A stretch of DNA of 62,499 nt from NCBI GenBank assembly GCA_964637985.1, contig CAZWXR010000001.1, positions 1 to 62,499 of the forward strand, in the 5' to 3' direction. This document shows, piece by piece, positions 26,564 through 47,932 of the stretch. The notes under the pieces are model-generated. The model was not told the DNA's origin and made no database searches. It saw nothing but the letters and a program-made list of their open reading frames with translations. The stretch's first letter is position 1. Every line of letters starts with the position of its first letter. The translations under genes and the position numbers were made by a program. Origin of the DNA: an uncultured Candidatus Poseidoniales archaeon. Its GTDB lineage: Archaea; Thermoplasmatota; Poseidoniia; Poseidoniales; Poseidoniaceae.

Positions 26564-26624
26564 GAACACCCTCCCTATAATTAGGCGACAAAAACCACTC
26601 TTTGAACATCACGCTTCGATTACT

Positions 26625-28717: not shown

Positions 28718-29263
28718 ATGGCTACGATGATGTCAAGTCCTCGAATCGCTCTTACAGGCATCAACGAAGGCATAGAAGTTCATGTGAAAACCACAACGAA
28801 AGGTGCTGAATCACCGTTAAAAATTCAAGAAGCAATAAAATACATTTTTCCTGATGCGAAAAATCTTGAAATCGGAGAACCAACCTTCGGAGAAAAAAAC
28901 AATAACACACTTGAATGGGAGGGCGTGTCAATGGAAACATTCCTCAAAAAGATTCACGAACAGCGAATACTCGATACCGCTTTGGACATGATGGTTCGAG
29001 AAATTGACGGTAACTCGACAACATTTGAGATCTCACGTCAATCTGCATCCGTTGGTAAAATTTCGTTTCCAATACCAAACGAATATCCTTTTGGAGGTGT
29101 TATTGAAATCTCCTTATCTGGCGACCACCTCATCGACTGGATTCAATCAGCAACATGGCATTCTGGCAGAGAACGATTTCCAAGATTCGCTGGTGACGAC
29201 TTCGAAATGTACAATGATGGGGAATCAAAAGTTTGGCATGATTCTCGCGAGGTATCTCGCTAA
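28718..29263 (+). CDS. UPF0201/COG1931-like predicted RNA-binding protein
   Basis: IEVHVKTTTKGAESPLKIQEAIKYIFPDA resembles the N-terminal signature of archaeal UPF0201 proteins (v.a.v.PTED.eKV..ai.niFP). The ATG at 28718 avoids the 100-nt overlap with the GT2 gene implied by the track start at 28580. Confidence 0.55.
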   Translation: MATMMSSPRIALTGINEGIEVHVKTTTKGAESPLKIQEAIKYIFPDAKNLEIGEPTFGEKNNNTLEWEGVSMETFLKKIHEQRILDTALDMMVREIDGNSTTFEISRQSASVGKISFPIPNEYPFGGVIEISLSGDHLIDWIQSATWHSGRERFPRFAGDDFEMYNDGESKVWHDSREVSR

Positions 29264-30196
29264 ATCTATGTCATGTGGCATCCAATTTATTTGGTGCAGC
29301 TCATCGATTGGAATCCATTGATATTCTGCATGCTCAAATAATTCGATTCTCTCTATTGCTTCATGCGTCGCTGTCGCAGATGTCAAAAAAAGAGCATACC
29401 AACGTTCTTTAATTTTATAGTCCCACCGACCAAGTGTCTTCAATGGGACGACATCAAGATTCAATTCTTCTAAACATTCCCTTTGCAAGGCATGTTGAAC
29501 AGATTCACCAGTCTCTAACTTTCCTCCAGGAAATTCCCACCCAGATACAGTATCCTCCGTTCGAAAAGCTGCAAAAATTTCATTCCCTTCAGACTTCAAA
29601 GCGAGCGCAGCGACATAGATGGGCTCAACTTTTAGTGATTTTACAATTGAACTCAAAATTTGAATGGTCGTATCGGTTAACTCATCGATTGGGATGGTAT
29701 CTTCTGAGGGTAAGTGCACGAAGACACAATTTTTCCGATGGGTATTTTGTTCGAGAGCCAACAATGTATACCTGTAGGTTTCGTTACAGACAAACGAACC
29801 TGCATCAATAGATTCTTCTACATTCTTTACTTGTTCAAATACACGATTGAACGGAATTTCTGAATACACTGGACCATAATCATCGATGGAACAAGAACGA
29901 ATTTGTCGCCCTTCGTTATCTGGTATCCGCATGTCAATCCAATTTATTGCACGTGTTTCAATGCGCACTTGGGTACATGATTCGCACAATCCCAAATGAA
30001 TGATGAGGTCAAATTTCACACCTGATTCAATCTTTTGTTTTGCATATTTTGCTCCGCTCTCTGAAACTGGTAATATTTTAAATTCAAAATTTACATCTAA
30101 ATTGAATGTATGTTTCATTAACTTCTGTACAACGAGCATGCTTGAATTAGTTATTGAATTTCCGAAGGGCTCAAAACCAGTCACAAGTATTCGCAT
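29225..30196 (-). CDS. fusion protein: pyroglutamyl-peptidase I (C15) N-domain + NUDIX (MutT-like) C-domain
   Basis: MRILVTGFEPFG start. The C15 triad context is conserved (VRIETRAIN Glu, GSFVCNETYRY Cys, VFVHLP His). NUDIX box GGKLETGESVQHALQRECLEELNL. ATG at 30196 chosen over the track start at 30265. Confidence 0.8.
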   Translation of the reverse strand: MRILVTGFEPFGNSITNSSMLVVQKLMKHTFNLDVNFEFKILPVSESGAKYAKQKIESGVKFDLIIHLGLCESCTQVRIETRAINWIDMRIPDNEGRQIRSCSIDDYGPVYSEIPFNRVFEQVKNVEESIDAGSFVCNETYRYTLLALEQNTHRKNCVFVHLPSEDTIPIDELTDTTIQILSSIVKSLKVEPIYVAALALKSEGNEIFAAFRTEDTVSGWEFPGGKLETGESVQHALQRECLEELNLDVVPLKTLGRWDYKIKERWYALFLTSATATHEAIERIELFEHAEYQWIPIDELHQINWMPHDIDLARYLARIMPNF

Positions 30197-30291
30197 GGGT
30201 TCCACGAGTGAAGTGATGAAAACAAGAATTTGATTTCTTCGGTAGAAATTCATCGGCACATTCACAAAGAAGATATGTTGAACAAAAAAAC

Positions 30292-30636
30292 ATGAGCGAC
30301 CAAGACGATGAGCAAGAATTGGTTGTTCAATTTCCTACAAAGGAAAAAAAACCTCTCATCCATAGAATGGTTTCGACGATCAAAACCATTTTCCATGAAA
30401 TCACATTTGGCGTAGGGACTTGGGGTGCCATGAGACCAATGTTTACTGCCCTGTTGGCCGGCGTGCCATTCCTTTTCCTCGGACAACACTTCAACAAAGA
30501 GCACGGCAAGGCAAGGGATTGGACTCTTTTGCAAATTCCGCTTGCACTCACCGTAGTCCTTTGGGTTGGACTTTGGCTTTTCTCCATATTTGATGCATGG
30601 AAAACGGCGACAGGTGTTGTTGCGAATTCAAATTAA
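30292..30636 (+). CDS. small membrane protein (114 aa, two TM helices)
   Basis: Acidic N-terminus followed by MFTALLAGVPFLFLG and IPLALTVVLWVGLWLFSIF. Preferred over the overlapping minus-strand ORFs, which lack any features. Confidence 0.5.
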   Translation: MSDQDDEQELVVQFPTKEKKPLIHRMVSTIKTIFHEITFGVGTWGAMRPMFTALLAGVPFLFLGQHFNKEHGKARDWTLLQIPLALTVVLWVGLWLFSIFDAWKTATGVVANSN

Positions 30637-31427
30637 GGCTGCCATAGTTGGTCGGTTGGTTTGATTTTCTCATTCTTCATATCGCTCAGGTCTGCAAGGT
30701 CATCCGAATCAAATTCGTTGGGCAAATCACCAGTAATGAAATTCATGAGTGAGGTCGATTCGATAGCCCAATACATGACTGAATCTTCGTTGTTTGAATG
30801 ACCTGGATGGCTTGAATCTTCATGAGGTCTTGGGGATTGGTAAACGAGATTGACCAAACCTAGAAGATGACCAACCTCGTGCACAACAACGCTGTTCTCA
30901 ACATCCTCAGCGGAAGGTCTTCCAAAGAAACCCTCTGCTTCCTCGATGCTGTCTTTGAAAATGGCGATTGTTGAACCATCCACAGCTACACCTAAAACAG
31001 AATCATCGACATATGACCCTGATGGGAAAATCAGTTGCCAGTACAATGTTGAAGTGCTATGTGGGTGTTCTTCTTTCAATTTCCAGCCCTGTTCCCTTAC
31101 ATCGTCTGCACTCCAAGAATCGATTGAGAATGTTGACTCGATATAATTGAATGTGATGCCTGATGGCTTATCACAAACCTCCATAATTCTGTCTTCAAGC
31201 ATGGTTATACTCGATGTCTCCGGCCGATAACCTGATTCGAATACAATCTCAAATTCGAGACTTTTATGCTGATCGGCACGTAAGCAGGCCATCGTTAAAG
31301 AACCTGGAACTCCATGATTTTCTATGTTAAGAACCTCTTTGATTGAATCCGACAGACAACCTGATGTATTCATTGAGACGATGAAGAGAGACATCAAAAC
31401 AGCGGTTGATAGCCTCTTCATAGACAA
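30633..31427 (-). CDS. secreted/lipoprotein-like HEXXH zinc metalloprotease (metzincin-like)
   Basis: Signal peptide ending in a possible lipobox (IVSMNTSGC). VVHEVGHLLGL zinc-binding motif with downstream His residues and a candidate Met-turn (DSVMY). Confidence 0.7.
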   Translation of the reverse strand: MSMKRLSTAVLMSLFIVSMNTSGCLSDSIKEVLNIENHGVPGSLTMACLRADQHKSLEFEIVFESGYRPETSSITMLEDRIMEVCDKPSGITFNYIESTFSIDSWSADDVREQGWKLKEEHPHSTSTLYWQLIFPSGSYVDDSVLGVAVDGSTIAIFKDSIEEAEGFFGRPSAEDVENSVVVHEVGHLLGLVNLVYQSPRPHEDSSHPGHSNNEDSVMYWAIESTSLMNFITGDLPNEFDSDDLADLSDMKNEKIKPTDQLWQP

Positions 31428-31457
31428 CGGTGCATACTGGTCTTAGAAAAATCTTCG

Positions 31458-31904
31458 TTACCAATCATCGGGAATCTCCAAGGGTGAAAACAATTGGCCT
31501 GGACTTTGTACATTCGATAACTGCGTACGAATAACTTGTTCCCATTGCCGAAGCATCAATAGAGCACGGTCCAGTTCAATATTGATTTCAACAAGTGTTA
31601 CACGAATCAGCGTGTCGAGAATATCCATTCGTTGGGCGTCGGACATCTCCAATAACTTGTCGAGAGAAAATTGCTGAGGATTGTTGGTGGAGACTTCGCC
31701 AATTTCCCAAGGCTCTGTCAATTCATTTGGAAGTTGTTGATTGGATGATGAAGCGTATTCTTGAAGTGAAGAAAGCAATTGTTTAATGTGCTTTTGAAAA
31801 ACGAGAGAGACCTCAAATAACGGCATCTTGAGTTGTTGGAGGAGGTTAACAACCCGTTCTTGAAAAACCACCATTCCATCAATAGTGGACGTGTCATTGG
31901 TCAA
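31458..31904 (-). CDS. hypothetical helical cytoplasmic protein (148 aa)
   Basis: Starts 12 nt after the stop of the 1788-aa gene on the same strand. No TM or signal sequence. Ends LEIPDDW. Confidence 0.5.
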   Translation of the reverse strand: MTNDTSTIDGMVVFQERVVNLLQQLKMPLFEVSLVFQKHIKQLLSSLQEYASSSNQQLPNELTEPWEIGEVSTNNPQQFSLDKLLEMSDAQRMDILDTLIRVTLVEINIELDRALLMLRQWEQVIRTQLSNVQSPGQLFSPLEIPDDW

Positions 31905-31916
31905 AGGATGACCTCA

Positions 31917-32180
31917 CTACTTTTTCGAATTGAGGTATTGCCAACCATATGCATTCCATTGCTCCATTGTCCACCCTTCAGGAAGACCTGTTGGTGGAAC
32001 AGGTGGTGCAGCAGGCATCGGTGCAGGTACTACAGGAGCGGTTTGTGGAGGAGGAATGGTAGGAGGTTGTGGTGCATTCTCGATTTCTGGGACGATCTTG
32101 TCGTTGTCTTCCATCGCATCAACAACATCAGCTGTTTGGTCAGATTCATCTTCGAAGGATTCGGCAATGAGTCTTCGACG
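31917..32180 (-). other. predicted cytoplasmic tail module: acidic linker + polyproline + terminal LPEGWTMEQWNAYGWQYL motif
   Basis: ESFEDESDQTADVVDAMEDND, then PQPPTIPPPQTAPVVPAPMPAAPPVPPTG, then LPEGWTMEQWNAYGWQYLNSKK followed by the stop. The DNA at 31956-31999 is 38/44 identical to 1359-1402 by manual alignment. Confidence 0.7.
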
Positions 32181-35100
32181 CATCACCATTGACCACACGC
32201 CAAATGAAATCGACCCCAATGCAATAATGAAGAGAACGATGCTAAATGTCCCTTCTGATGCTTGTTGTGAGAGTGCATCCCCATCACGAATTGTTTGTTC
32301 TTTGACAATGAGTGGGTCAACGGTTACTCGATCCATCTCGACACCATCGACAAGAACGAGAACACGATACTGGATGCTTTCACCAGCAGCAACATCAGCA
32401 ATATCGGATAACGTTGCGATGAAATCTTGATTGGTTGTCACATCGAGAGAAATCACATCGGTTTCAGACCAAAAGCCACCTTCAATCAGGCGTTGTAATG
32501 AAAATTCTATTTGCCCTGAACCTCCAAGATTCGTTCCCTTGACAATCATACTCGATAATTGGCCTTGAGTCGGGCTTGGATTCGACCATTTTAGTGATGT
32601 ACTTTCGGCTTGAAGGTCGACCTTTGGTCCTATTAGAGCCAACGGCCATGACGCAAATGGTTCAATCATCGAATTACCACTTGTATCGAATGGATTTCCT
32701 GCTTCGTCCGACCCCGATATCCAAACATCAACCATGTATGATTGAAGTAATGTGGTCGCACCAGCGTCCGTCAAATCAAGATATCCTGTCCAAAAGAATT
32801 GGTCACCGAACGGTGTGATTTCAGGTAATAGAACGCTACCTCTCGAAATCTCTGCTTCCCCTGCTTTTACTCTATAATGAAGTACTGCAGGTTTATCAAA
32901 GTCAAATCCATTATCATCCCTCGTCTCAAGTTGAACAAGCAAATTGTCTGCATTTCCGATGGAGAGTGGCATATTCGGGTCAACACCGCCAAGTGAGATA
33001 CTGCCAATCGTCGGTCTGTCACTGTCGACTGCTAGGCGAACTCTTGGAACAAATGGTGATTGGTCTTCTGCTAAACCAGGTAAGTCGTCCAACTTCAATC
33101 GTAGGTCGAGGTGCCCTGAACGCACAGACGGTACGAGCAAATCAAGAGAAAACTCCCCATCTAATCTTGTCGAGGTTTCCCAAAGGAATTCAAAGTCTCC
33201 AAATGTAACATCAAAGGCACCTGCTGGAGCAGGAGTTTCATCTTCCGAGAACAGAACTCGACCTGAAACTCGTAGTGCTTGCCCTGCACCAATGATGGTC
33301 TCAAAGTTCTCGTCATTGTAGTGATTCAAACCATTTCGAAGTTCAACTGCACGGATGTGGCCGCTTTCTGTATCGAATCTGAAGTCATTATCAAGGCTCC
33401 ACCAATCTTCACCCAATCCGTATTCAAGTTCGTAACATGGTGTATCTTCACCTACATTGCATGGTCTGTCTGTAATGAGTATTTTTGGAATGAAGTGTGA
33501 TTCACCGTTTGTGTCAAATATTTCGGGGAAGGTCCATGTCAATTGGAATCTTGCTTGAATCAAAATTTTACTCTCGTTTACGGGGTCAATTTCGACTGTT
33601 GAGTAAATGTTTGATACTGCAATATGGGTTGAACCGGACGCCATAACCGCTCGTGGTTGACCGTTTTCATCTTCTTCCATGCTGATGAAAATTGAAGATT
33701 CGTCATCTTCCAAATCCCCACTTAGAGAGAGTTGAATGTATTGAATATCTCTCCAAGTATTGCGATCACTCACAACGAGTTGTGCTGTGTAAAGGATGCC
33801 GGGATGGAGAGGCTGGTAATCATCATGTCCTACGATTGTTGAATTGCCAATATCAACACTAGGTTGGAACTCTTGACGAATCACATATGTTACGAGATCT
33901 GCATCCCAGTCTGGAACCGTCTCACCAGGCCTATATCCACATGATACACTACTCTGCGGACATACAGGGCCACCACCCATTGCCACCTGATTGTTTTGAC
34001 CATCTTTTCCAGAGACATAGAAGGAAACCTTCTGTCCATGCAACAACATTGAATCATCAAGCATGCCCTCAAAAATATTCAAACCGCCCACTTGCGTATC
34101 TGGTGAACCTATACTCATAAGTTCATATTCGTCTGCATTTGGCAAGCCATCAAAGTTGTAGTCAGTGCATCCGATTGCATCGCTTGCCCTACAACCAATC
34201 CAATAGTGGAGGGATATCGTATTTGGTGGGTCAACGGAGTCTTGAATCGTAATTGATATGGGTTTGCCACCACCTGTTGCTGCTGCGTGTTGCTCTGAAC
34301 GATCTATAGGAGTAGCTTGGATGACAAGAGGCGAATTTCCATCGAGAACGAGACGTATTGAATTATAGGAGGGATTAGAAAAAGTCGAACCATTGACGAG
34401 GTCAACCGCTTGAACATAGAATACCATTCCACCGGGGTGAGATTCTGTTGGTGATGTAAAAGTGAAATTATATTCACCAAAGGCAGGATTAACCTCTTCG
34501 AGGAGGACCACAGGTTCCCCAACGGGGTCGCCATCATACGTCACGTTTTGACCAATAATGCGAATAGAAAAGGACCCTGCTTCCGGCATAAGTTGAGAAC
34601 TTTCAAAGTAAATACCTCCGACAAAAGTCAAGTTGTATCCTCCACGCACCCAATCAAAAGAGTACAATTCTCGGCCTGTTTCCTCAAAGACTCGTAATCC
34701 ATCAAGTTGGATGTCGTTCTCAATCACAAGGTCCATATCGGAGGTTTGCCATCCATTCACCGCAATACCTAGACTATCTTCGACTGTAACAACTGCTTCG
34801 GCATCAGACTCATCGTTCCAACTCCAGTTGACTTTCGTTGGTATGCGAATCACTAATTCACCTTTCGAATTGATAGAAGAAGTACAATTTGTTGTATCAA
34901 ATTGGATAATACCTCCGGCATTCGATATTGTGCTGCACGAATTACCCAATTGCCACATGAATGAAGGTGTTGGTCCATGTGAGTTAAGAATGCCAATTGT
35001 TGCTTTCGTGACCCTATCAACATCATCCCCGTGAGCTACTGTTGCGATTAAATTTCGATAGATGCCATCGGGTGCTGTAAGACCCCCTTCGAATTCAACG

Positions 35101-37283
35101 CTCACAGCACGAGTTTGCATTTTGTAAGCGACATCAATATTCGAAATTTTCACTCGACCTGAAGTAGCGGCTTTTATCGCAATTGGAACATTTACTGTAC
35201 CCTCTCCGTTTTCAGGTATGAAATCGTTGAATGCATCGATGAGCGTTGGTGCATCTCGCACCACGGTACCGACAGCGGATTCATCATTTGCAACGATTGA
35301 AGATTCATTGAGGAATAACAACGAACGCCAGTCCCATGTCCCGTCGTTTCCGACATCGATTTCTGGTCTATCCGGATATCCCTCTTCAAAATTCAATGTA
35401 AATTTGTCAATCTTTGGAGTTATTGTTGCATCATTGGTGGTGAAGAATATAGCATACTTGAGTGTGTTTCCCGCACCCTCAGTTGAGAAACTTGATTCTT
35501 GGTTATTCGGAGCTTGTACCCAATTTGTGCCATTATCATTTGAAACCATCACTGAAATTGAGGTGCCTGCAGGTTCATCTGCAACCCATACTGGACGAAC
35601 TTTGCCAACTTTTGTACCTGTATTGAAATGTGGACTTGTCCAGTCTCCAGATGGCTGGTATTCAGTTGCATACTCAAGTTCAACCCACCATGAAACTGCG
35701 GTTGAACCAATAAGTTGTGCCTTCCAAACAAGTTCTTTACCGGGGTAAGCAAAATGTATTGTTTCATTGCTCACAACAGGCTCCCAATGGGTTCCATTGT
35801 CCGCAGAGATCCAATAGTCAACCCGGTCGCCTATTGATGACGCTGACCAGTATGCCTTCATGTTGGCTGAAAGAATGTCATCCCCGCTATTCACGACAGG
35901 CCCGTACCACGTGGTCGTTCCTGGAGCAGGTGTCGTCTTGTACGTCCAACCCGTTCCAAATTCTCTGTAATACAATGTCGAGCCCGACCATGTTGAATAG
36001 CCTGAGTCAACGGTAACGAATCGCTTTCCATCAAATTGCAGACCGTAACCAAGTGGAGATATCTGGCGAACACCTTGTTGTGGTACGAGAGAAGATGATT
36101 GACCTGAAATTGACCACGCTTCTAATTGGTCTCTATCGTTGTAATACTGGTCTTTTTGGCATCGCATAAAGAATGTTGATTGGTTCACTTCGAGACCGCG
36201 AACAAGTTGTCCCGTTCTTCCACAGTCCCAACTTGAACCTGATGATGAAGAGAAGGTATACATTGTATCACCACGCTGATATTGACCAGTTCCGTCGCCG
36301 CTGAATGTGTATGGAACAATGGATCGAGCAGAGTTGTGAACAATCCACACGACATCTCTTGAATGGTCGTAAGCAATGGCAACATAGTCTTGCAATTGGG
36401 GTGAAACATCGTAGGAATCTATGCATGTCCAAACATCATCTCTAGAGACATCCATTTCGACGACCCTATGGTACATGACTGGAGCTGTTGAACCATAGGG
36501 GTATTTGTAGCCCGATAAAATACCAAATAATCGTTCATCATCGGTAAGAGTCCAATCTCTAAACCCATACATTCCATAGTAACTGCTGGAATGTTTTTGT
36601 GGCAAGGTACACTGTGCTTTATCGAGTGTGATGGTCGATTCGATGGTTGCATTATTTGGATACAACCTCTTGACAACATTGTGGAATGACGACGAGGACC
36701 ATGTTGACAAAAACAACCAATCATGATGCTTGAGAATTGCTCCTTGTCCTTGAGCCATGAATGTCGTGGCAGTCTTACTCACTTGTTGAGAGAACCTCGA
36801 TTCGGTTGCGTTGGATGTATGGGGCTGTCTCAACGAAAAAGAGCCGTTGTCCAACCAAGCATCCGAGTTTGGGTCCTCTACTGCATCGTTCCCGTGAGGG
36901 TCAAACAAAATCGTTGTATTGCTCATTGCAAGTGTGAGGTCATCGCTTCTGTCATCAATAAGTGATTCGAGTCCCTTTACCCAATCTTTGCGTTCGTCCG
37001 TCACGATTTGCGACCAACCTGTGGCGGATGCTCCTGATAATGTCAAACTAACGTCAGTAACCAAAGCACCTTTGGGTATTTGGATTTCAGCACCAACATC
37101 AGGATTCCCTCCCTGGTAGAGTGCAATGTACTCTGATGAGCCATCTTTGAAATCATAGATGTGTCGAGCCACGCCTGCTGCTTGAACATCATCAACAACG
37201 TTGGAAAAAACAGGCGACCATGGCGTGAATATCATAATAAAAATGATGAAAATTGCCGCTCGGCTCGACCGAATTGAGTCCAT
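31917..37283 (-). CDS. giant (1788 aa) type I membrane-anchored surface protein, ectodomain of unknown family
   Basis: Signal peptide AAIFIIFIMIFTPWSPVFS. A long beta-rich ectodomain with many N-x-S/T sequons. C-terminal TM helix FSIVLFIIALGSISFGVWSMVM followed by RRR and an 87-aa tail. GAGGGG lies about 8 nt upstream of the ATG at 37283. Confidence 0.85.
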   Translation of the reverse strand: MDSIRSSRAAIFIIFIMIFTPWSPVFSNVVDDVQAAGVARHIYDFKDGSSEYIALYQGGNPDVGAEIQIPKGALVTDVSLTLSGASATGWSQIVTDERKDWVKGLESLIDDRSDDLTLAMSNTTILFDPHGNDAVEDPNSDAWLDNGSFSLRQPHTSNATESRFSQQVSKTATTFMAQGQGAILKHHDWLFLSTWSSSSFHNVVKRLYPNNATIESTITLDKAQCTLPQKHSSSYYGMYGFRDWTLTDDERLFGILSGYKYPYGSTAPVMYHRVVEMDVSRDDVWTCIDSYDVSPQLQDYVAIAYDHSRDVVWIVHNSARSIVPYTFSGDGTGQYQRGDTMYTFSSSSGSSWDCGRTGQLVRGLEVNQSTFFMRCQKDQYYNDRDQLEAWSISGQSSSLVPQQGVRQISPLGYGLQFDGKRFVTVDSGYSTWSGSTLYYREFGTGWTYKTTPAPGTTTWYGPVVNSGDDILSANMKAYWSASSIGDRVDYWISADNGTHWEPVVSNETIHFAYPGKELVWKAQLIGSTAVSWWVELEYATEYQPSGDWTSPHFNTGTKVGKVRPVWVADEPAGTSISVMVSNDNGTNWVQAPNNQESSFSTEGAGNTLKYAIFFTTNDATITPKIDKFTLNFEEGYPDRPEIDVGNDGTWDWRSLLFLNESSIVANDESAVGTVVRDAPTLIDAFNDFIPENGEGTVNVPIAIKAATSGRVKISNIDVAYKMQTRAVSVEFEGGLTAPDGIYRNLIATVAHGDDVDRVTKATIGILNSHGPTPSFMWQLGNSCSTISNAGGIIQFDTTNCTSSINSKGELVIRIPTKVNWSWNDESDAEAVVTVEDSLGIAVNGWQTSDMDLVIENDIQLDGLRVFEETGRELYSFDWVRGGYNLTFVGGIYFESSQLMPEAGSFSIRIIGQNVTYDGDPVGEPVVLLEEVNPAFGEYNFTFTSPTESHPGGMVFYVQAVDLVNGSTFSNPSYNSIRLVLDGNSPLVIQATPIDRSEQHAAATGGGKPISITIQDSVDPPNTISLHYWIGCRASDAIGCTDYNFDGLPNADEYELMSIGSPDTQVGGLNIFEGMLDDSMLLHGQKVSFYVSGKDGQNNQVAMGGGPVCPQSSVSCGYRPGETVPDWDADLVTYVIRQEFQPSVDIGNSTIVGHDDYQPLHPGILYTAQLVVSDRNTWRDIQYIQLSLSGDLEDDESSIFISMEEDENGQPRAVMASGSTHIAVSNIYSTVEIDPVNESKILIQARFQLTWTFPEIFDTNGESHFIPKILITDRPCNVGEDTPCYELEYGLGEDWWSLDNDFRFDTESGHIRAVELRNGLNHYNDENFETIIGAGQALRVSGRVLFSEDETPAPAGAFDVTFGDFEFLWETSTRLDGEFSLDLLVPSVRSGHLDLRLKLDDLPGLAEDQSPFVPRVRLAVDSDRPTIGSISLGGVDPNMPLSIGNADNLLVQLETRDDNGFDFDKPAVLHYRVKAGEAEISRGSVLLPEITPFGDQFFWTGYLDLTDAGATTLLQSYMVDVWISGSDEAGNPFDTSGNSMIEPFASWPLALIGPKVDLQAESTSLKWSNPSPTQGQLSSMIVKGTNLGGSGQIEFSLQRLIEGGFWSETDVISLDVTTNQDFIATLSDIADVAAGESIQYRVLVLVDGVEMDRVTVDPLIVKEQTIRDGDALSQQASEGTFSIVLFIIALGSISFGVWSMVMRRRLIAESFEDESDQTADVVDAMEDNDKIVPEIENAPQPPTIPPPQTAPVVPAPMPAAPPVPPTGLPEGWTMEQWNAYGWQYLNSKK

Positions 37284-37361
37284 GGCATAGCCCCTCTTGC
37301 CAATGCATTAAACTCATAGCCTTTGAAGAATACGGTTTGAAGTCACAAGCAACACATTTGT

Positions 37362-40300
37362 TCAAGTTTCTCGTGAATCGTAACGAATTGGTGAGGATTG
37401 CCCTCGAACACCATCTTCTTCATCGTCCCGTACCTCAAACCAATCAACGAGCCAATCACCATCGGTGTCCCAGTTCATTGGACTACTGCCCTCAGCGAGA
37501 TGGTCATCGTCAAAATCAAGTATGTACCATCCAAATTCGTGCTCGCCAACATTTCGTTCGGGAGCGGTATTTGGTGAGAACTGATAATATATCTCCCATG
37601 TATCTGTCCTATTACCTGCAAGAAGTATTTCGTCATCAGAAGCATTGAGTTCAAAGAAATTTACATCATGATCGTTAACGATGTACCCATATTGGAAATC
37701 TGGCCCCGCAAATTTATCCATCTTGAGATAGTTCAACACAAGTTCATTCGACTGGCCAATACCAAGCACTGCTTTTCTCAATTGCCACCATTCGGTGACT
37801 ACGTTTCCGTCGACAGTCAAACCAGATAATCTCACAGCATTAGGTGAGGAGTATTCCTGAAGCGTAAACGCAAAGAATTCTTGGAAATTTGTATACGGTT
37901 CGTATGTACAACCAGCCCCAGTACAGTCCCAGTTTCCATCCTGGTCTGGATCTTGATTCGCATCGTTCGAGTCTGCAGGGTCGAGTGTAAACCATGTGTA
38001 CTCCAAATCTGGCCTTTGAAGTTCTCCAGTCTGTGAATTAAGCGACAATGGCAGGCAAGAAGAAGTCGATGTGGTGCAAGCACCTCCTGTGCCAGGGTCA
38101 ATCCATTGAACTTGAATTTCTAAGAAGGAACTGAAATTGTCATTTGATTCATTCCAACCTAATTTGTATTCGTACCAATCCGGCAACATATCTCCATCAG
38201 TATCATTATCGCTTGGATTGCTTCCATACTTGAAGACTTCACGACCGTCTGAATAATTGTAATCTCGGACGTGTGAAATAACAACGCCGTTTTCTACAGT
38301 TGTGATGAATGTGACGCTGTCTCCATCGGAATCATTGAGGTCTGGTCTCGTGTCATTCATCCATTCCATCAGATTTGTGAAAGGAAGGTCCCCGATTCCC
38401 TGTTGAATTTGTTGTGAAGAAGGCGTGAACACCCGATTGTTCCAAACACCTTGAGTCGCTGGTTGGTCAAAGGTGGTTCGCCCATACCAACCATCATGGT
38501 CACCATCATAATTGATGTCGAATGGATTAAGTGGGTTGGAAGACCAGTGGTTTATTGTCGTCGTATCATTCATTCCAAACATGGCGTAGCAATATTCCCA
38601 TCCATCCGGAATGCCATCACTGTCTGAGTCAGGGTGTGTTGGGTCAGCAACACCTCTCAATGAGCGATTGAAATTGCCGGGGTCGAGTGAATTGATTTTT
38701 TCCATTCGCTCGAGTGAATCTGGCCCTTTCGCAATAAAGTCTTGATAGAGAGCAAGTTGAGCTTGCAAAATCGAATATCCGAGTTCTTCCTGATAGGCGA
38801 GCATAGCATCCTCACCAAAATCGATGATGCCGAGTTCGATGGGCACTGTTGCCCTCATGTCGAATTTACCCCAAGTCCTCGATTCCCACTCGCGTAAGTT
38901 GGAAAACCGTTCGTCAAGAGAAATATCTCCGTCACCGTTGCAATCATAACTATCATCGTCAGAATCAAGGTCCACATCCCCATCAATGAGAGGATTCATA
39001 CTCCATCTGTTTTCATCCAAATCCCAAGATGTGAACCAGTATTCGAATCCATCGTACATTCCGTCACCATCGGTATCGCTAGATGTTGGGTCGGTCATCC
39101 CCTGTAGAACTGAGATGAATGCGTTCGGAGGCTCACCAGATTGCCATGCATTGAAATCATCGAGCAGGCGTTTTCCACGAGTATTCTTTGAGATCAGCAT
39201 GTTGAAAATTCGTTGAGCTTTTTCAGTCGGCTGTTGAAGGTCTCCATCGATGTGAAGGAGAGGGGCATCGCTCGGATGTTCGATTCCATTGTCTGGCTGC
39301 ATTGTCGCAAGTGCAAACTCTTGTTTATCGATTAGACCGTCCTCATCCCCATCGAAGTTCCCATCGTCAGGCACGAGGGGGTTAAGTGTCCAAACTTCAG
39401 CTGATGAATTCCATGCCGTGAAGAGCAACTCTAAACCATCGAGCATACCGTCACCATCAGTGTCGATGTTGTTTGGGTCCGTTGTTCGACCCGATAAGTT
39501 ACGAATGTCATCATCGATAAAACTACCAAATGAGGCAGATGTTGGAATACCCGGCCATTGTTGTAAGGCGTACGCTGTTCCAACGGTTGTTACAAACCAT
39601 TGTGGTGAACTCCTGTTGTTTTGAATCTCGGAGAAGTTTGGATCAATCGAATTATACTCCTCCCAATTTGTCATTCCATCATCATCAGCATCTTCCCAGC
39701 GATCTTTCGAATCGAGTGGATTTAACGTCCAACCATCTTCAAGTAGATTCCATCGAGCAAACCAAATTTCCCACCCGTCAGGCATGCCATCTGTATCGGA
39801 ATCTGCATCCCATGGATTTGCAGCTCCAACGCTGTAGGTTGTTTGACTGTTGTACAATTCACTAAATGCTCTGTCTGCAAATGTGTCTTCAGGTTCGCCG
39901 AAGTCGTAGATATTGTCAAACAAGTTCGTTTCAAATTCGATAGGAAACTCTTCCCCGTCAAATGTACCATTATTCACAAACAAATCACTTCGGAGATGGT
40001 ACTCAAGATAATTGACAAATTGTTCATTCAATGTCAGCACGCCATCATGGTTAATGTCGTATCCATCACCATCGGGGTTGCTAAGCACATCGGTTGAGTT
40101 GAGTGGATTGACGCCGTTGTATTCTGGCGACCATGTACAACGACCATCAGATTCCCAACCATCTGGAAGTGAATCTCCGTCTGAATCGATAGAATTCGGA
40201 TCTGCTACACTCCAATTTGCTACTGCTTCGGGAACTTCGCCGAAATTCTCTATCAATTCACCCTCTAGGCCTGCAAGCCTTACAAGTGACCATTGATATT

Positions 40301-43103
40301 CACAAAGATTAGCTAACCCGTCGCTATCTGCATCCCAATTTGCATCTTCTGGCCGATGAGGGTCAAGCGTCCAATTATTTCCGCCGGTGAATGTGGTTCC
40401 AATCCAACGACGATGTTCAATTTCCCAACCGTCGGGCATACCATCCCCATCCGAATCTATGTTCGTTGGGTCAGTTCCAAAATCGATGTTCATTTGATTG
40501 AGATATGTCGCATTTGCTTGCTGACCCACTTGACTGTCGCATTGATACACCATTTGAATGGTGTAATAGCACCAGAGCGTGCTCTCCTTGTAGTAGAAGC
40601 CATAATATTCAGCACCGTCTGATAAACCGTCGCCATCGGTGTCGCCTTCTTGTGGATTTGTTGAATTAAATCCTCCTAAGGTTCGTTGAACGTATCTGTA
40701 TTCATCAAGATTGACCCACAATCGTTCAAGGACACCATCACCGGACGCATCGAGGTCGATACCGTCGCCGTCAAAATCGAATTGAGCATCCCATGGGTCA
40801 GTGGGGTCAAGGCCATGCTCGTACTCCCAGCCATCAGGCATTCCATCAGCATCAGAATCGTTTGAGAGAGGGTTGATGAGTTTGAGGTTTGAAAATTGGC
40901 CTGGTGATGCAGCTGCAAAGACAATTGTTTGACCTTCTTGATTGACCGATATCACTGAAGAAATCTCTCCCGGAATCCGAGTTTGGTCTTGCAAACCGTA
41001 GACCGCAGCATAATCACCTGCAATGGCCCAAACACCCCATTCAGAACCAATCAAAATCTCATCGCCGGTTGGATAAATTGAGTGAATGCTATTGGTTTCA
41101 CGTATTGTCTTCCCTTCAACCCCTGGATGTGCAAAAAGTCCGCTGTGCGTTATCTGACCTGAACCTGTGTCCATTCGATGAACACCAGCTGGTGTCCCGA
41201 ACCACAAAACTTGGCTATTTGTTGAAGATGGTCCATCAAAAACCAGTGTTCGAATTTCCGCAGGATTTCCTTGAGAACCGATAGCCATTGGTCGTATATT
41301 GTCGACTTGTGGGCCAAAATTCGATTGTTCAGGGTCGTAATACGCCACCCAGTCACCTGTAGATTCATCTCGACCTGTCGCTGTTTCAAAGATGACCAGA
41401 CCAACATTCGTACCAACTGCAAGCAATGATTCACCGTTGGAATTTATGCCATGTGCAATTGCATTGACGCTAGCATTGCGCTCAAACAGTGAAGTTACAA
41501 TTCCTGAACCAAGTTCATGCGTCGCTTCGATGTCGAAACCTGAAGATAACTCTACGATGAGACCCGTCCCTATTGAACCTAGACCGATTAATGTGGGCAA
41601 ACCATCTTGAGATGCTAACAACGTGATGGCGTTCAATTCACCTGATGTAACATGGGTCCATAAATCGAGGGAAGCAAACGAACCATCTGCCAAAAGAGGT
41701 ACGATGGACATCCCCTTTGACGTCGCTAATGCAATTGCAAAGATTTCACCATCGTCCATGACATACACTGCATCATGAGCTTTCATACCTTGTGGGAACC
41801 ATTGATGGGTTGATTGGTTTGAGTCAAGATTAATCGAAGTCAAACCGTAAGTTGCCACCACATGTAGTGTTTGTTCAAAGGAAAGAAGAGATTGAATATC
41901 GTGATGTATCGATTCAATACCCCCTTGTTGCTCAAGCATCAACGGATATCTTACAACGGTTGACTCATTGAGGAGTAACGCTGACTTGAGGCCTGGATAA
42001 ATCGTATTTCCATCATCAAAATGTATGTTGTATTCTTGAATATTTGATAGGGCTTCCCCAACCTCTAAAGCCGTCAAAGTTCTCGATAAATCTTCAGTGA
42101 CAATACCATCTCGATTCCTATCCCAACCATCCTTATCTTCATCGATGAGAGAATTGGATTTGTTCAAGGGGTCAAGGCCAAAATGGACTTCCCAACCATC
42201 GGTCATACCGTCCCCAAATGATGGGAATAGAGGTCGAATTCTGCCAACCCACTCATATCGGTCAGAGTCGTCGAGGAGAGGGTCTGTGCCTAACCACATA
42301 TCATCACCGATCATACCAGTTGCATTCGTGGTACAGGCTTCGAGAATATTCACAAATGAAGCATTTGAATTTGTTCCAATATACGGCCAAGAGTTCCTGA
42401 TTGCACCGTCAGGCAGGCTTGCTTGACACCACAATCCATCGAGTTCGGTGACAAATGATGAATTGGCTCCGTAAATGTATTCTTCAGAAGAGGTAAACCG
42501 TTCAGGTATAGACAAATCGCCATCGCGGTTGATGTCAAAGCCGTCTTGGTCAGGGTCGTCTGTTAAATCGCTTGCATTGAGGGGGTCGAAGCGCAAACAA
42601 TTATACCGCATCTGGATGACATTGTACCCTCCAATTCGATCGCACATGTATGCCTCAAATCCATCAGGAAGACCATCACCATCTGTATCTGCTTTTCTCG
42701 GGTCAAGATACATCCGATTACCCTCCTCGTCTGTTTTCCCTGTTAAACCACGAGGGAACCCGGGCGCAGTGCAATTCGCTGGATAGGGCCAGCAATATTC
42801 TTCTGTGCTGTTTAAGCCGTCACGGTCAAAGTCCAGTGCTGCATCAGTCGCATCATTTTTGTCAAGCCCTTTGATTGAAATTTCCCTTCCGTCGACATTC
42901 GTCCAATTCAACCATTCTTCAAAAAGTGATTCGTGAACATCAGGAATAAGATCTCCATCTGAGTCTGTATTTTTTGGAGGCTCTTGAGTTGTGTCGTCTG
43001 GGTGAACGTTTGCCACAGGCGAAACAGCAGGAAATTGTGACATGAACAAAAGGCTAGAGATGACGGCAAGTGTCGTCAAAATCGTTGTCTGACTTCGCCT
43101 CAT
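37362..43103 (-). CDS. giant (1913 aa) secreted Ca-binding protein with more than 20 thrombospondin type 3-like repeats and a central non-repeat (possibly beta-propeller) region; no membrane anchor
   Basis: Signal peptide ILTTLAVISSLLFMSQFPAVSP. Recurrent D-x-D-x-DG-x-x-D-x-x-E units (DTDGDGLPDGFE, DSDADGMPDGWEYE, DSDGDGMPDGWEIE, DTDGDGMYDGFEYW, DSDSDGIPDGWEY and others). No hydrophobic C-terminal segment. GGTGA lies 5 nt upstream of the ATG at 43103. Confidence 0.9.
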   Translation of the reverse strand: MRRSQTTILTTLAVISSLLFMSQFPAVSPVANVHPDDTTQEPPKNTDSDGDLIPDVHESLFEEWLNWTNVDGREISIKGLDKNDATDAALDFDRDGLNSTEEYCWPYPANCTAPGFPRGLTGKTDEEGNRMYLDPRKADTDGDGLPDGFEAYMCDRIGGYNVIQMRYNCLRFDPLNASDLTDDPDQDGFDINRDGDLSIPERFTSSEEYIYGANSSFVTELDGLWCQASLPDGAIRNSWPYIGTNSNASFVNILEACTTNATGMIGDDMWLGTDPLLDDSDRYEWVGRIRPLFPSFGDGMTDGWEVHFGLDPLNKSNSLIDEDKDGWDRNRDGIVTEDLSRTLTALEVGEALSNIQEYNIHFDDGNTIYPGLKSALLLNESTVVRYPLMLEQQGGIESIHHDIQSLLSFEQTLHVVATYGLTSINLDSNQSTHQWFPQGMKAHDAVYVMDDGEIFAIALATSKGMSIVPLLADGSFASLDLWTHVTSGELNAITLLASQDGLPTLIGLGSIGTGLIVELSSGFDIEATHELGSGIVTSLFERNASVNAIAHGINSNGESLLAVGTNVGLVIFETATGRDESTGDWVAYYDPEQSNFGPQVDNIRPMAIGSQGNPAEIRTLVFDGPSSTNSQVLWFGTPAGVHRMDTGSGQITHSGLFAHPGVEGKTIRETNSIHSIYPTGDEILIGSEWGVWAIAGDYAAVYGLQDQTRIPGEISSVISVNQEGQTIVFAAASPGQFSNLKLINPLSNDSDADGMPDGWEYEHGLDPTDPWDAQFDFDGDGIDLDASGDGVLERLWVNLDEYRYVQRTLGGFNSTNPQEGDTDGDGLSDGAEYYGFYYKESTLWCYYTIQMVYQCDSQVGQQANATYLNQMNIDFGTDPTNIDSDGDGMPDGWEIEHRRWIGTTFTGGNNWTLDPHRPEDANWDADSDGLANLCEYQWSLVRLAGLEGELIENFGEVPEAVANWSVADPNSIDSDGDSLPDGWESDGRCTWSPEYNGVNPLNSTDVLSNPDGDGYDINHDGVLTLNEQFVNYLEYHLRSDLFVNNGTFDGEEFPIEFETNLFDNIYDFGEPEDTFADRAFSELYNSQTTYSVGAANPWDADSDTDGMPDGWEIWFARWNLLEDGWTLNPLDSKDRWEDADDDGMTNWEEYNSIDPNFSEIQNNRSSPQWFVTTVGTAYALQQWPGIPTSASFGSFIDDDIRNLSGRTTDPNNIDTDGDGMLDGLELLFTAWNSSAEVWTLNPLVPDDGNFDGDEDGLIDKQEFALATMQPDNGIEHPSDAPLLHIDGDLQQPTEKAQRIFNMLISKNTRGKRLLDDFNAWQSGEPPNAFISVLQGMTDPTSSDTDGDGMYDGFEYWFTSWDLDENRWSMNPLIDGDVDLDSDDDSYDCNGDGDISLDERFSNLREWESRTWGKFDMRATVPIELGIIDFGEDAMLAYQEELGYSILQAQLALYQDFIAKGPDSLERMEKINSLDPGNFNRSLRGVADPTHPDSDSDGIPDGWEYCYAMFGMNDTTTINHWSSNPLNPFDINYDGDHDGWYGRTTFDQPATQGVWNNRVFTPSSQQIQQGIGDLPFTNLMEWMNDTRPDLNDSDGDSVTFITTVENGVVISHVRDYNYSDGREVFKYGSNPSDNDTDGDMLPDWYEYKLGWNESNDNFSSFLEIQVQWIDPGTGGACTTSTSSCLPLSLNSQTGELQRPDLEYTWFTLDPADSNDANQDPDQDGNWDCTGAGCTYEPYTNFQEFFAFTLQEYSSPNAVRLSGLTVDGNVVTEWWQLRKAVLGIGQSNELVLNYLKMDKFAGPDFQYGYIVNDHDVNFFELNASDDEILLAGNRTDTWEIYYQFSPNTAPERNVGEHEFGWYILDFDDDHLAEGSSPMNWDTDGDWLVDWFEVRDDEEDGVRGQSSPIRYDSRET

Positions 43104-43197: not shown

Positions 43198-43244
43198 ACA
43201 AAAATACATTGAATACGACAAAAATACATCGAAAATAGTATTTT
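43198..43244. promoter_or_regulatory. tandem 16-nt direct repeat (ACAAAAATACAT[T/C]GAA x2, 20-nt register) plus adjacent AAAATA-g-TATTTT palindrome in a divergent intergenic region
   Basis: Read directly: 43198-43213 acaaaaatacattgaa and 43218-43233 acaaaaatacatcgaa (15/16 identical). The palindrome lies at 43232-43244. The element sits between the divergent starts at 43103 (-) and 43303 (+). Confidence 0.6.
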
Positions 43245-43302: not shown

Positions 43303-44127
43303 ATGACGATGAGTATCACCCATCTCGGAACAGGAAGCAGTGGCAACTCCACATTGCTTGCTACCGAAGATACAAAATTGCTCATTGACCAGGGATTTAG
43401 CGGCAGAAAACTTACCCAACGATTATCCCAAATAGGATTGGAACCAACGGATATTGACGCCATCCTCATCACACACCATCATGGTGACCACGGGGGTGGT
43501 GCGAAATTGTGTCAAACTCGATGGGGCATTCAAATCTATGCAAATGAACGGACTGCACTTGAACTTGACCTTTTACCCGACCACACCACATATTTTGAAA
43601 ATCTAGAATTGCTCGAATTTGGCTCCGATATTCGAATTCTTCCGGTACCAGTACCACATGATGGAGCGGACAATGTAGCATTCATCGTTAGTTTCCAACA
43701 AGAACGTGCTGCAATCATAACAGATTTAGGCTCATGGACTGATGAATTGGTACAACATGTTCATGGATGTGAACACATTGCAGTCGAAGCGAACTATGAT
43801 TCAAAACGACTTCTTCGCGGCCCATACCATAGGAAATTGAAAGACCGAATAACAGGTCGAGGCGGGCACTTATCAAATGAACAAACAGGATCATTTCTCG
43901 CACAAGTTTGTACAGCATCAACCCGCAGCATCACACTGCTTCACTTGAGCGGCGAGAATAATCGGCCGCATCTCGCTGAATCAACAGTACTCTACCATAT
44001 TGACGAAATTTTTTCGGGAGATTTGAGAATATCCACTCAAGATGGGCCAGAATTTTCGACATACATCGGTCAGCAATCTGAAGAAGGGCAACAAAGCAAA
44101 ATCCATCGATTCAAGGTGAATGCATAA
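43303..44127 (+). CDS. MBL-fold metallo-hydrolase (YycJ/WalJ- or PhnP-like)
   Basis: ITHLGTGSSGNS, LLIDQG and the HxHxDH motif ILITHHHGDHGGG, with downstream His/Asp ligands. 274 aa. Confidence 0.85.
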   Translation: MTMSITHLGTGSSGNSTLLATEDTKLLIDQGFSGRKLTQRLSQIGLEPTDIDAILITHHHGDHGGGAKLCQTRWGIQIYANERTALELDLLPDHTTYFENLELLEFGSDIRILPVPVPHDGADNVAFIVSFQQERAAIITDLGSWTDELVQHVHGCEHIAVEANYDSKRLLRGPYHRKLKDRITGRGGHLSNEQTGSFLAQVCTASTRSITLLHLSGENNRPHLAESTVLYHIDEIFSGDLRISTQDGPEFSTYIGQQSEEGQQSKIHRFKVNA

Positions 44128-44151: not shown

Positions 44152-45213
44152 ATGGAAGCCAAGAGAGGCAAAATATTCTCGGCTTCTTCATCCAGAGATG
44201 AGCATGGTGTAAGTGAAGTTCTCGGTGTTGTGATGCTTCTGGCGATGGTCATCACCATTATGGGAGGCGTCTGGGTTTTTCTCAACCCGTACATGAGTGA
44301 CTTTGAAGACAACACAAACTGGAAATCAGCCACTGGTATAACTGAACGAATCGACGATCGCATCAGTGTGGCAGGCAATTCGCCAAATGGAACCGGTTTC
44401 AAAAATTCAATGTCGCTGATTTCAACCTCCATACAAACCATGAAGGGCATAGAATATTGGACTTTGGCTGCTGATTTAACCACTCGAGATGTCGTCAAGG
44501 TCAAACACATGAATGATTCAGCAATTGAAGTGACATCAATCAATGAGCGAATTGTATCCATCGATATTCAAAACCACATCGAAACGTTATCGCTCGATGT
44601 CAATGACGGCGAAAACCGATATGTCATCAGCCACAATCTTTCTCGTCAAAAATGGTTCATGGTCACTGCTTATGATGCACAGGGACAGACACTCCACAGA
44701 CATGTCGATGTCATTCTTTCAGGATTAAAAGTCACCACGAGCCTCGGGATGGGTGACCATCAAATCGCCCTCATCAACAACGCTGTTATCGAGAAATTTC
44801 CAAATGACCCTTGGACCATTGCCTCAATGCCCACCTTGTCGTTCACGCACCTCGCAAATGGCGATGTGAGACTAGCCATCCTCCTTACAGATGCCCATTC
44901 AATTCGTTCATTTGGTGGTGCAGGGAAAACAAGCGTCGAATTTTTGTCTCTTGGCCCAATGAATTTATTTTCTGGACCGGCTTACAACATTCACTTCTCT
45001 GCTCACAGTGAACTCCACCCAGTCGTTAGTCCACAGTACCACGATAATTGGTTGCAGGACTATTATCTCCATCGCTCATCTGCCACATTGACAACATATG
45101 ACGGCTTAGCACCATTTGAGCGAGCGAGTGGTGCCGATGGTTTTACTGTGATGACGACGAGTCCAGTTGTACATTTTGAAGTTGACCTTCAACGAGTTGA
45201 GGTGAACACATGA
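44152..45213 (+). CDS. archaeal type IV pilin-like protein (class III signal peptide, DUF1628-like N-terminus), 353 aa
   Basis: N-terminus MEAKRGKIFSASSSRDEHG-VSEVLGVVMLLAMVITIMGGVWVFL: a short charged leader followed by the typical VSxVxGvvLlla hydrophobic helix. Confidence 0.75.
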   Translation: MEAKRGKIFSASSSRDEHGVSEVLGVVMLLAMVITIMGGVWVFLNPYMSDFEDNTNWKSATGITERIDDRISVAGNSPNGTGFKNSMSLISTSIQTMKGIEYWTLAADLTTRDVVKVKHMNDSAIEVTSINERIVSIDIQNHIETLSLDVNDGENRYVISHNLSRQKWFMVTAYDAQGQTLHRHVDVILSGLKVTTSLGMGDHQIALINNAVIEKFPNDPWTIASMPTLSFTHLANGDVRLAILLTDAHSIRSFGGAGKTSVEFLSLGPMNLFSGPAYNIHFSAHSELHPVVSPQYHDNWLQDYYLHRSSATLTTYDGLAPFERASGADGFTVMTTSPVVHFEVDLQRVEVNT

Positions 45214-47459: not shown

Positions 47460-47932
47460 ACGCACATTCAAATTTTACTCAAGATGAGTCAGGTGCAGCA
47501 ACAGAACTCGGCTATATCTTCACCTTTCTTCTCGGTGTACTCCTCATGACAATGTTCAGCATTTGGGCATGGGGCATCGAAACATCTACTCGAGAGCGTT
47601 GGAACGATGAAGCGATTATAGCCAATATGGACGATATCGTTGAAGCAGTTGAGCGTGCGAATGAAGCTAGCCGAATTGATAATTCAACATATGCCGAATG
47701 GGTTTCGTGGAGACCAACGGAAGCAGATGAATCATTGATGACACTTATTTTGGAAACAGATACAATTGAATTGGTCGATGAATCTGAAAGAGAAGGTTAC
47801 ACTGTGCATCACTCTGGAACAGGGAATGCAGAAAATAATGGCACGCTTGCGTTAGCAGGAATCACTACAATTTGGATTGTCCTCGAAGATGGCCAAATCT
47901 ATCTATCAGCAGATAGACCATACTTTTCCTAG
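47456..47932 (+). CDS. small type IV pilin-like protein, 158 aa
   Basis: ATGA overlap with the upstream gene, with GGGAGG about 8 nt upstream. N-terminus MNAHSNFTQDESG-AATELGYIFTFLLGVLLMTMFSIWAW. Confidence 0.65.
   Translation: MNAHSNFTQDESGAATELGYIFTFLLGVLLMTMFSIWAWGIETSTRERWNDEAIIANMDDIVEAVERANEASRIDNSTYAEWVSWRPTEADESLMTLILETDTIELVDESEREGYTVHHSGTGNAENNGTLALAGITTIWIVLEDGQIYLSADRPYFS

Follow-up and report, generated by a model that had tools for sequence, protein, structure and literature searches.

A locus held across Poseidoniales archaea pairs a secreted TSP3-repeat giant with a small cytoplasmic protein in a candidate cell-surface module

Results

Four genes in series on the minus strand

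Poseidoniales are the most abundant planktonic archaea of surface oceans and are uncultured. Here we analyse a stretch of 62,499 nucleotides (nt) from an uncultured Candidatus Poseidoniales archaeon (GenBank assembly GCA_964637985.1, contig CAZWXR010000001.1, positions 1 to 62,499 of the forward strand; hereafter the window) and, in particular, a locus at which four genes follow one another on the minus strand. In the direction of transcription these genes encode a secreted giant protein with calcium-binding TSP3 repeats (the TSP3 giant), a second giant that is predicted to be membrane-anchored (the anchored giant), a small protein that is predicted to be cytoplasmic, and a putative lipoprotein with a zinc-binding HEXXH motif (the protease). 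An earlier reading of the letters alone (the sequence-only reading) had picked out this series, with gaps of 78, 12 and 30 nt, and had sketched the anatomy of each product; open reading frame (ORF) calls and translations confirmed the series (Table 1), and the four sketches held up as described below. Each of the genes has many orthologues of near-constant length, and we therefore take all four to be real genes under selection. Searches of PDB sequences, made with single proteins and with profiles, returned nothing meaningful for any of the four products, the anchored giant included, and no paralogy links the two giants, either to each other or to the remaining giants encoded in the window.

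Table 1. Positions of the four genes, of motifs within and between them, and of neighbouring features of the window (aa, amino acids)
Feature	Positions	Strand	Details
TSP3 giant ORF	37362-43103	minus	1913 aa
Anchored giant ORF	31917-37283	minus	1788 aa
Small protein ORF	31458-31904	minus	148 aa, TTG start
Protease ORF	30633-31427	minus	264 aa as called; likely start ATG at 31421, giving 262 aa
TSP3 giant C-terminal end, ...SSPIRYDSRET	37365-37410	minus	last ~13 residues, G.SSPIRYD[SD]R.T
TTCAAA hexamer	37322-37327	minus	39-44 nt before the ATG of the anchored giant; part of ACCG(C/T)AT..TTCAAA, an intergenic element that is conserved
Transmembrane segment of anchored giant, ASEGTFSIVLFIIALGSISFGVWSMVMR	32178-32261	minus	hydropathy; followed by RRR
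Cytoplasmic tail motif, PPVPPTGLPEGWTMEQWNAYGWQYLNSKK	31920-32006	minus	end of acidic, proline-rich tail of anchored giant
Lipobox cysteine of protease	31356-31358	minus	TSGC in the window
HEVGH zinc-binding motif	30867-30881	minus	alignment of 18 orthologues
Convergent ORF	30292-30636	plus	114 aa; overlaps protease stop codon; downstream boundary of cluster
Metallo-beta-lactamase-fold (MBL) gene	43303-44127	plus	Pfam Lactamase_B; divergent; upstream boundary of cluster
Two direct copies of ATGTATTTTTGT	43198-43229	minus	20 nt apart, in AT-rich stretch
S8 subtilase giant	1320-6290	minus	1656 aa; CARDB and NPCBM_assoc domains
Peptidase_C15 and NUDIX hydrolase fusion (C15-NUDIX)	29225-30265	minus	346 aa
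Three consecutive genes	44152-47932	plus	hydrophobic N-terminal segments
Beta-helix/Big_7 giant	50470-54903	minus	1477 aa
Further giant surface protein	56256-62393		

The TSP3 giant has a Sec-type N-terminal signal and no further hydrophobic segment of anchoring length, as the sequence-only reading had it. It is strongly acidic (pI 4.05) and contains 11 strict DxDxDGxxDxxE motifs, 29 DxDxDG loops and 32 N-glycosylation sequons. The Pfam model TSP3_bac (PF18884) matched 19 of 20 orthologues, with a best E value of 6.7e-7, and the Binary_toxB calcium-binding and EF-hand models matched five orthologues each. The protein of the window itself scores 20.4 bits against a TSP3_bac gathering threshold of 25, so that its assignment rests on the motif counts together with the orthologues. 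It also matches NCBIfam NF033765 (CglD), in the repeat region only, at 9e-13 and 46.9 bits, against an equivalog cut-off of 400 bits. At the other end of the protein, the C-terminus (Table 1; GSPIRYDDRT is one form) is kept in every lineage, including a clade that lacks the anchored giant at this locus, and it may be a docking or sorting motif.

The anchored giant is laid out as a signal peptide, an ectodomain of approximately 1650 residues, a single C-terminal transmembrane segment and a cytoplasmic tail; hydropathy windows and the translation bear out both the anchor and the GW motif with which the tail had been said to end. We detected 171 homologues, all unnamed, and among the 120 listed, 118 are full-length, at 1754-1835 aa. 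Pfam searches with 20 orthologues identified no domain and nothing consistent. An AlphaFold2 model of residues 28-1227, built from 31 sequences, consists essentially only of beta-strands (mean pLDDT 79.7, pTM 0.40), and Foldseek returned for it only generic multi-beta-sandwich proteins at a TM-score of about 0.1. The matches included a mastigoneme protein, PorU, alpha-2-macroglobulin/C3, an ice-binding adhesin and phage tail parts, and at such a score we assigned none of these families. The model suggests a chain of beta-sandwich, possibly propeller-like, domains that belongs to no assignable family.

The tail is near-invariant (GW..QW..YGWQY) in all anchored giants of the Poseidoniaceae and takes the form GW[ST]xxQ[WI] in five deeper lineages (L088, L091, L092, L174 and L175); it is absent from the anchored giant of L087. 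A nearly identical tail, LPAGWTMEQWIHYGDQWLERQN, ends the S8 subtilase giant encoded 30 kb away. In both proteins the motif begins exactly 19 residues before the stop codon, and it is the only similarity between them. That the tail is common to these two proteins suggests that it is a cytoplasmic module shared by some Poseidoniales surface proteins and is not specific to the cluster.

The small protein had been read as cytoplasmic, helical and ending in PDDW. Indeed, it has no signal peptide or transmembrane segment, it is acidic, and AlphaFold2 predicts a helical bundle (pLDDT 84.7, pTM 0.80), for which Foldseek found nothing below an E value of 0.9 in PDB and BFVD. A 17-bit match to REase_II in PADLOC was judged spurious. 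Its homologues form 420 clusters of 146-153 aa, only 130 representatives were found among 1.84 billion proteins, all confined to Poseidoniales, and they end in PGQLFSPL.IP..[WFY] with little or no variation. The TTG start codon of the gene lies 12 nt past the stop codon of the anchored giant, with GAGGT 7 nt upstream.

The protease begins with a hydrophobic stretch and a lipobox-like TSGC and contains HEVGH, which agrees with the HEXXH lipoprotein-like protease that had been described. Across 18 orthologues the lipobox reads L-[SA]-G-C, most often LSGC, with the glycine and cysteine invariant; with a signal peptide that ends in a lipobox with an invariant cysteine, the protein resembles archaeal lipoproteins in sequence. 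The invariant context of the zinc site in these orthologues is HEvGHLLGLVN...HE...GHS.N..SVMYW. All 18 match Pfam Peptidase_M10 below threshold (best 2e-4; 19 bits for the protease against a threshold of 24), and some match Reprolysin_2/3/4, Zincin_1 or DUF4953. HExxHxxG is present. The extended metzincin motif HExxHxxGxxH/D is not, the third-ligand position being an invariant asparagine in the 18 orthologues, and the invariant SVMYW, 30 residues past the zinc site, is a candidate Met-turn. The protease is thus best described, at sub-threshold scores, as a putative zincin with metzincin-like features and a lipoprotein-type signal.

The four-gene order is fixed within the Poseidoniaceae

To ask how widely this arrangement is held, we scanned GTDB species representatives with an alignment of the small protein, which gave 80 loci, all Poseidoniaceae or Poseidonia by name; contig look-ups added six more. 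In all 76 loci that extend far enough for tblastn to establish the order, the four genes stand in the same order, which fits the sequence-only reading. A comparison of names with Table S1 of PMC9723583 shows that no fewer than two genera, L1 and M, are represented, and the metagenome-assembled genome (MAG) RS440 (locus L017) carries the cluster. A complete four-gene cluster with syntenic neighbours is also found in NZEQ01000036.1 (L037), which is labelled 'Verrucomicrobiales bacterium isolate ARS100' and is probably a mis-binned or mislabelled MAG. On the downstream side of the protease, insertions of 1.2-5.9 kb separate the protease from C15-NUDIX in L068 (7025-12933) and L080 (11251-17169) and C15-NUDIX from GT2 in L086 (12722-14489); in each case the four genes are intact and the remaining region is syntenic.

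We compared orthologues from L1 and M with the proteins of the window, excluding the close relative L001. The anchored giant is 65-69% identical and the TSP3 giant 63-71%, close to the chaperone DnaJ at 61-70%; the protease (51-59%), the small protein (49-57%) and the neighbouring GT2 (40-51%) are less conserved. The C15-NUDIX fusion, which is kept as a fusion across Poseidoniales, evolves fast, at 31-36% identity where the giants are at about 65%. These values, together with the near-constant sizes, suggest that the giants are constrained like DnaJ over their whole length.

Such constraint bears on the possibility that the giants are adhesins for particles or phytoplankton and not building blocks of the envelope. 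TSP3 repeats and multi-beta-sandwich giants are typical of adhesins, and the Foldseek matches include the 1.5-MDa ice-binding adhesin and the biofilm-associated protein Bap. Indeed, the literature that we found refers to these genes solely as thrombospondin genes, whose wide occurrence in Poseidoniales Rinke et al. take as evidence of cell adhesion (PMC6461757). Set against this are the near-constant lengths, evident in the 118 full-length homologues of the anchored giant among those listed, the DnaJ-like conservation and the fixed presence of the locus in all genomes seen, whereas in adhesins the number of repeats commonly differs between homologues and the distribution is patchy. The lengths and the conservation thus argue for a constrained structural or core envelope component rather than a variable adhesin, and, while an adhesive role would be compatible with one in the envelope, we think it quite improbable that the giants are adhesins instead.

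Two of the four genes form an invariant core

Divergent genomic contexts were reached through divergent homologues of the small protein from the search of representatives (a homologue search with the divergent small protein P0156 found only itself). All four genes are present in order in L174 and in L092, the latter with a G+C content of 68% and a small protein that is only 31% identical. Both giants and the small protein are present, and the protease is missing, in L087, L088, L091 and L175. In L089 the TSP3 giant is followed directly by the small protein, with neither the anchored giant nor the protease at the locus. A metagenome scan seeded with small proteins of the L089 type identified 470 relatives, of which the best 80 (G+C content 35-61%) were examined. 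The order at these loci is a TPR-ATPase, the MBL gene on the opposite strand, the TSP3 giant, the small protein, C15-NUDIX in most, a 318-aa protein and DnaJ; the anchored giant was found at none of the 80 loci and nor was the protease. L089 and 78 of the 80 metagenome loci make up this two-gene clade, which is probably the Thalassarchaeaceae (Marine Group IIb, MGIIb), to be taken as a candidate name only.

In every lineage found, the genes for the TSP3 giant and the small protein are adjacent, save for the intervening anchored giant where that is present. From these comparisons, the invariant core of the locus consists of two genes, those of the TSP3 giant and the small protein; at this locus the anchored giant is dispensable, and the protease is a patchy accessory. 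The anchored giant is nonetheless widespread, and it is probably ancestral because it is present in L087, a lineage at least as divergent.

The spacing of the small gene follows the same pattern. Its gap to the preceding giant has a median of 9 nt in the Poseidoniaceae, and the gene begins 3-12 nt after the stop codon of the anchored giant or overlaps it. In the metagenome clade, where no anchored giant is adjacent, the first possible start of the small gene lies at a median of 4 nt inside the stop codon of the TSP3 giant. This spacing suggests that the small gene is coupled, in translation or in transcription, to the giant that precedes it, be it the one or the other.

The sequence-only reading had gone further and proposed that the cluster encodes one machine from one operon, in which the anchored giant would tether the calcium-binding giant at the surface, the protease would act in its maturation or shedding and the small protein would dock on the cytoplasmic tail. 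In favour of this proposal, all four genes run in one direction with little space between them, and their order is kept in the Poseidoniaceae, L092 and L174. However, the large two-gene clade keeps the TSP3 giant and a small protein with the canonical C-terminal motif with neither the anchored giant nor the protease adjacent, and the protease is lost in four further lineages. Tethering by an adjacent anchored giant is accordingly not obligatory, the small protein has no exclusive tie to the tail of that giant, and the protease is an accessory and not a standing part of the cluster. The occurrence of the same tail in the unlinked S8 protease also speaks against the proposal, and the C-terminal motif of the small protein, modelled at a pLDDT of about 86, may pack on its own helical bundle and not be a free ligand. 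A weak hint in favour of docking comes from L087, in which the anchored giant has no GW tail and the small protein has no PGQLFSP...W ending. We did not accept this co-variation as evidence of contact: it concerns one lineage, and the two-gene clade keeps the small-protein motif.

Promoter-like motifs probably divide the cluster

The intergenic element upstream of the anchored giant contains a TTCAAA hexamer (Table 1), and TTCAAA or TTGAAA lies approximately 24-45 nt upstream of many starts in the window (for example those of the genes at 657-1283, 21378-23144, 23228-25441 and 25445-26569), at positions that are fixed across genera. We scored TT[CGT]AAA at -45 to -22 from the start codon, against a background of 3.2% of 24-nt windows. 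The motif precedes the anchored giant in 64 of 76 loci, the protease (at about -30) in 81 of 86 and, as a control, the independent gene for DnaJ in 69 of 70; it precedes the small gene in 3 of 86. In the lineage of the window itself the protease has only a degenerate form of the motif (GATTTTTCTAAG). The intergenic gaps seldom contain five or more T in a row. We infer that TTCAAA is a candidate TATA-like promoter element of Poseidoniales.

Independent promoters between all of the genes had been named in the sequence-only reading as a finding that would tell against its proposal. Promoter-like motifs are in fact found at two of the three junctions, and the junction before the small gene is without one. 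Because the motifs precede the anchored giant and the protease, a single operon is unlikely; transcription probably proceeds in three units, the first comprising the TSP3 giant, the second the anchored giant together with the small gene and the third the protease, with read-through possible between them. With this further point against it, we regard the single tether-and-protease machine as unlikely and, at best, as a lineage-specific elaboration.

Upstream of the TSP3 giant, the 199-nt intergenic region that it shares with the divergent MBL gene contains two direct copies of ATGTATTTTTGT, approximately 95-125 nt before the ATG, which may be a regulatory site.

The separate motifs also fit a quite different explanation, namely that the four genes are functionally independent, are neighbours by inheritance within a strongly syntenic region, and include only one, the small gene, that is truly coupled to a giant. 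The synteny extends far beyond the cluster in all lineages, from the TPR-ATPase and MBL genes to C15-NUDIX, GT2, DnaJ, DUF5591 and S15, and the anchored giant and the protease, each with its own promoter-like motif, are lost independently. On the other hand, all of the products but one are surface proteins located outside the cytoplasm, a composition that would be unlikely for random neighbours, and both giants evolve at similar and unusually slow rates. Moreover, insertions and losses affect the flanks (the 5.9-kb insertions after the protease, and losses of GT2 and C15-NUDIX in some lineages), and none has fallen between giant and small gene. Inheritance as the sole reason for the arrangement therefore strikes us as improbable.

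Surroundings of the cluster

The source names of homologues place the window in a Poseidoniales (Marine Group II) archaeon, and its neighbouring genes include archaeal housekeeping genes such as an archaeosine-synthase-like DUF5591, DnaJ, GAPDH and the pyroglutamyl-peptidase/NUDIX fusion. At the site of the convergent ORF that bounds the cluster downstream, an opposite-strand gene of 107-114 aa is called in relatives too; the ORF has no match in Pfam or PADLOC. At the upstream boundary, L089 and the metagenome loci have the same divergent MBL gene next to the TSP3 giant. Scans of the window for Rfam families and for tRNAs were negative, and PADLOC gave no link of the cluster to anti-phage defence systems.

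Between the MBL and TPR-ATPase genes lie three consecutive genes that may encode pilin-like proteins of the archaeal kind. Weak matches to DUF7289 were obtained for the products of the first (353 aa) and second (749 aa), and the third (158 aa) has no Pfam match. The MBL and TPR-ATPase genes are directly adjacent in L089 and the metagenome loci, which points to an insertion or lineage-specific feature in the window. Further on, the beta-helix/Big_7 giant has a C-terminal transmembrane segment and a different tryptophan-rich tail, HPGWLWDAANNQWVPDPNYQQPQQ; its homologue adjoins the TPR-ATPase gene in L089.

Discussion

The reading that we tentatively favour, and to which we give somewhat less than an even chance, is that the cluster is a core-genome cell-surface module of Poseidoniales, serving the envelope or a surface coat, with a two-gene core and add-ons. 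In the core, the Sec-exported, strongly acidic, calcium-binding TSP3 giant would be the constant extracellular component, and the small protein would act in the cytoplasm on the biogenesis of the giants, perhaps by chaperoning them, by helping in their export, or as a coupling factor or adaptor. The giants would be structural surface proteins. In the Poseidoniaceae and several deep lineages, where the anchored giant lies between the core genes, it could form the membrane-bound stalk or base and the calcium-binding giant its outer, calcium-bridged partner, in keeping with the logic of a two-component archaeal surface layer (S-layer). In a subset of lineages a metzincin-like lipoprotein follows, and this may process or trim surface proteins.

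Several observations weigh against this reading. The Pfam, NCBIfam and PDB sequence searches brought up no homologue among known S-layer proteins. In a large clade the locus has no anchored giant, and in several lineages it has no protease, so that the two-component arrangement cannot be general unless a substitute is encoded elsewhere. The anchored giant and the protease each have a promoter-like motif in front of them, which points to separate units of transcription. At least 20 kb of the region, to DUF5591 on one side and to the TPR-ATPase and MBL genes upstream where flank is available, is syntenic across the order, which makes adjacency alone weak evidence of a functional link. The role that we propose for the small protein is a guess about a fold without a match, and the other giant surface proteins of the window (the S8 subtilase giant, the beta-helix/Big_7 giant and the one at 56256-62393) could equally be the main envelope protein.

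The module reading can be extended, in a form that we hold to be a long shot: the TSP3 giant and the small protein would be the main envelope system of Poseidoniales, the small protein a new kind of dedicated cytoplasmic helper (an export chaperone or adaptor) for giant archaeal surface proteins, and families would differ in the architecture of their envelope according to whether they have the anchored giant and the metzincin-like lipoprotein. If this were true, the difference in envelope between the Poseidoniaceae and, probably, the Thalassarchaeaceae could underlie particle-associated versus free-living lifestyles. More broadly, the locus supplies candidates for the study of the envelope, in that it is fixed and conserved, has a two-gene invariant core, and encodes a wholly unannotated anchored protein of 1800 aa as well as a Poseidoniales-specific cytoplasmic partner of unmatched fold, with a clear clade-level pattern of presence and absence. 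It also yields a candidate Poseidoniales promoter motif, TTCAAA, approximately 30-45 nt upstream of start codons.

We found no paper describing the cluster in the literature that we searched. The sequence-only reading knew of no described archaeal system of this composition; that was too strong, in that both SlaA/SlaB and tetrabrachion with its bound protease STABLE follow the same logic (PMC5744192). SlaA/SlaB, of the Sulfolobales, consists of an unanchored outer protein and a C-terminally anchored stalk protein (PMC5744192). As at the locus described here, these are encoded by adjacent genes on the same strand, and a large unanchored protein is paired with a partner that has a single C-terminal transmembrane helix (PMC5744192). 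There too, a conserved intergenic region separates the genes, and SlaA and SlaB are beta-rich glycoproteins (PMC5744192; PMC10903991). Gene adjacency of this type is found in the Poseidoniaceae and several deep lineages and not in the two-gene clade. The proteins of the cluster have no sequence or profile similarity to SlaA/SlaB, and the cluster differs from that system in having an anchored partner that equals the outer protein in size, a TSP3 calcium-binding repeat protein in the outer position, a small cytoplasmic protein within the conserved core, and a whole clade whose locus lacks the anchored partner. S-layers of the SlaA/SlaB type form a paracrystalline lattice that covers the cell and are very highly expressed.

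Tetrabrachion of Staphylothermus marinus is likewise a giant membrane-anchored surface glycoprotein with a protease, STABLE, that is proposed to process it (PMC5744192). However, STABLE is a subtilisin and the Poseidoniales protease a metzincin-like lipoprotein that is dispensable in many lineages, and tetrabrachion has a coiled-coil stalk, in contrast to the anchored giant, whose 1200 modelled residues are all-beta. A third comparison, made by description only, is with the 292-kDa Ig-domain S-layer protein of Pyrobaculum, which is also a very large archaeal surface protein with many beta-sandwich domains and is reported to have a membrane-proximal stalk (bioRxiv 10.64898/2026.08.21.746120). 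It belongs to another phylum and is single-component, and the abstract of that account mentions neither a TSP3 partner nor a small cytoplasmic protein.

Single components of the cluster also have counterparts elsewhere. Bacterial TSP3-repeat proteins such as Myxococcus CglD (NF033765) share with the TSP3 giant the DxDxDGxxDxxE calcium-binding arrays of a secreted surface protein, but the similarity is limited to the repeats, and the TSP3 giant has no lipoprotein signal and no VWA domain that we could detect. The metzincins (matrixins, M10, and reprolysins, M12B) share HExxHxxG with the protease, whose conserved downstream SVMYW could be a Met-turn; they differ in having histidine or aspartate as third ligand where the protease has asparagine, and all of the Pfam matches between them are sub-threshold. 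As far as can be judged from the genes, then, the logic of the cluster resembles that of two-component archaeal surface layers, with parts that are unrelated in sequence and a cytoplasmic partner that appears to be new.

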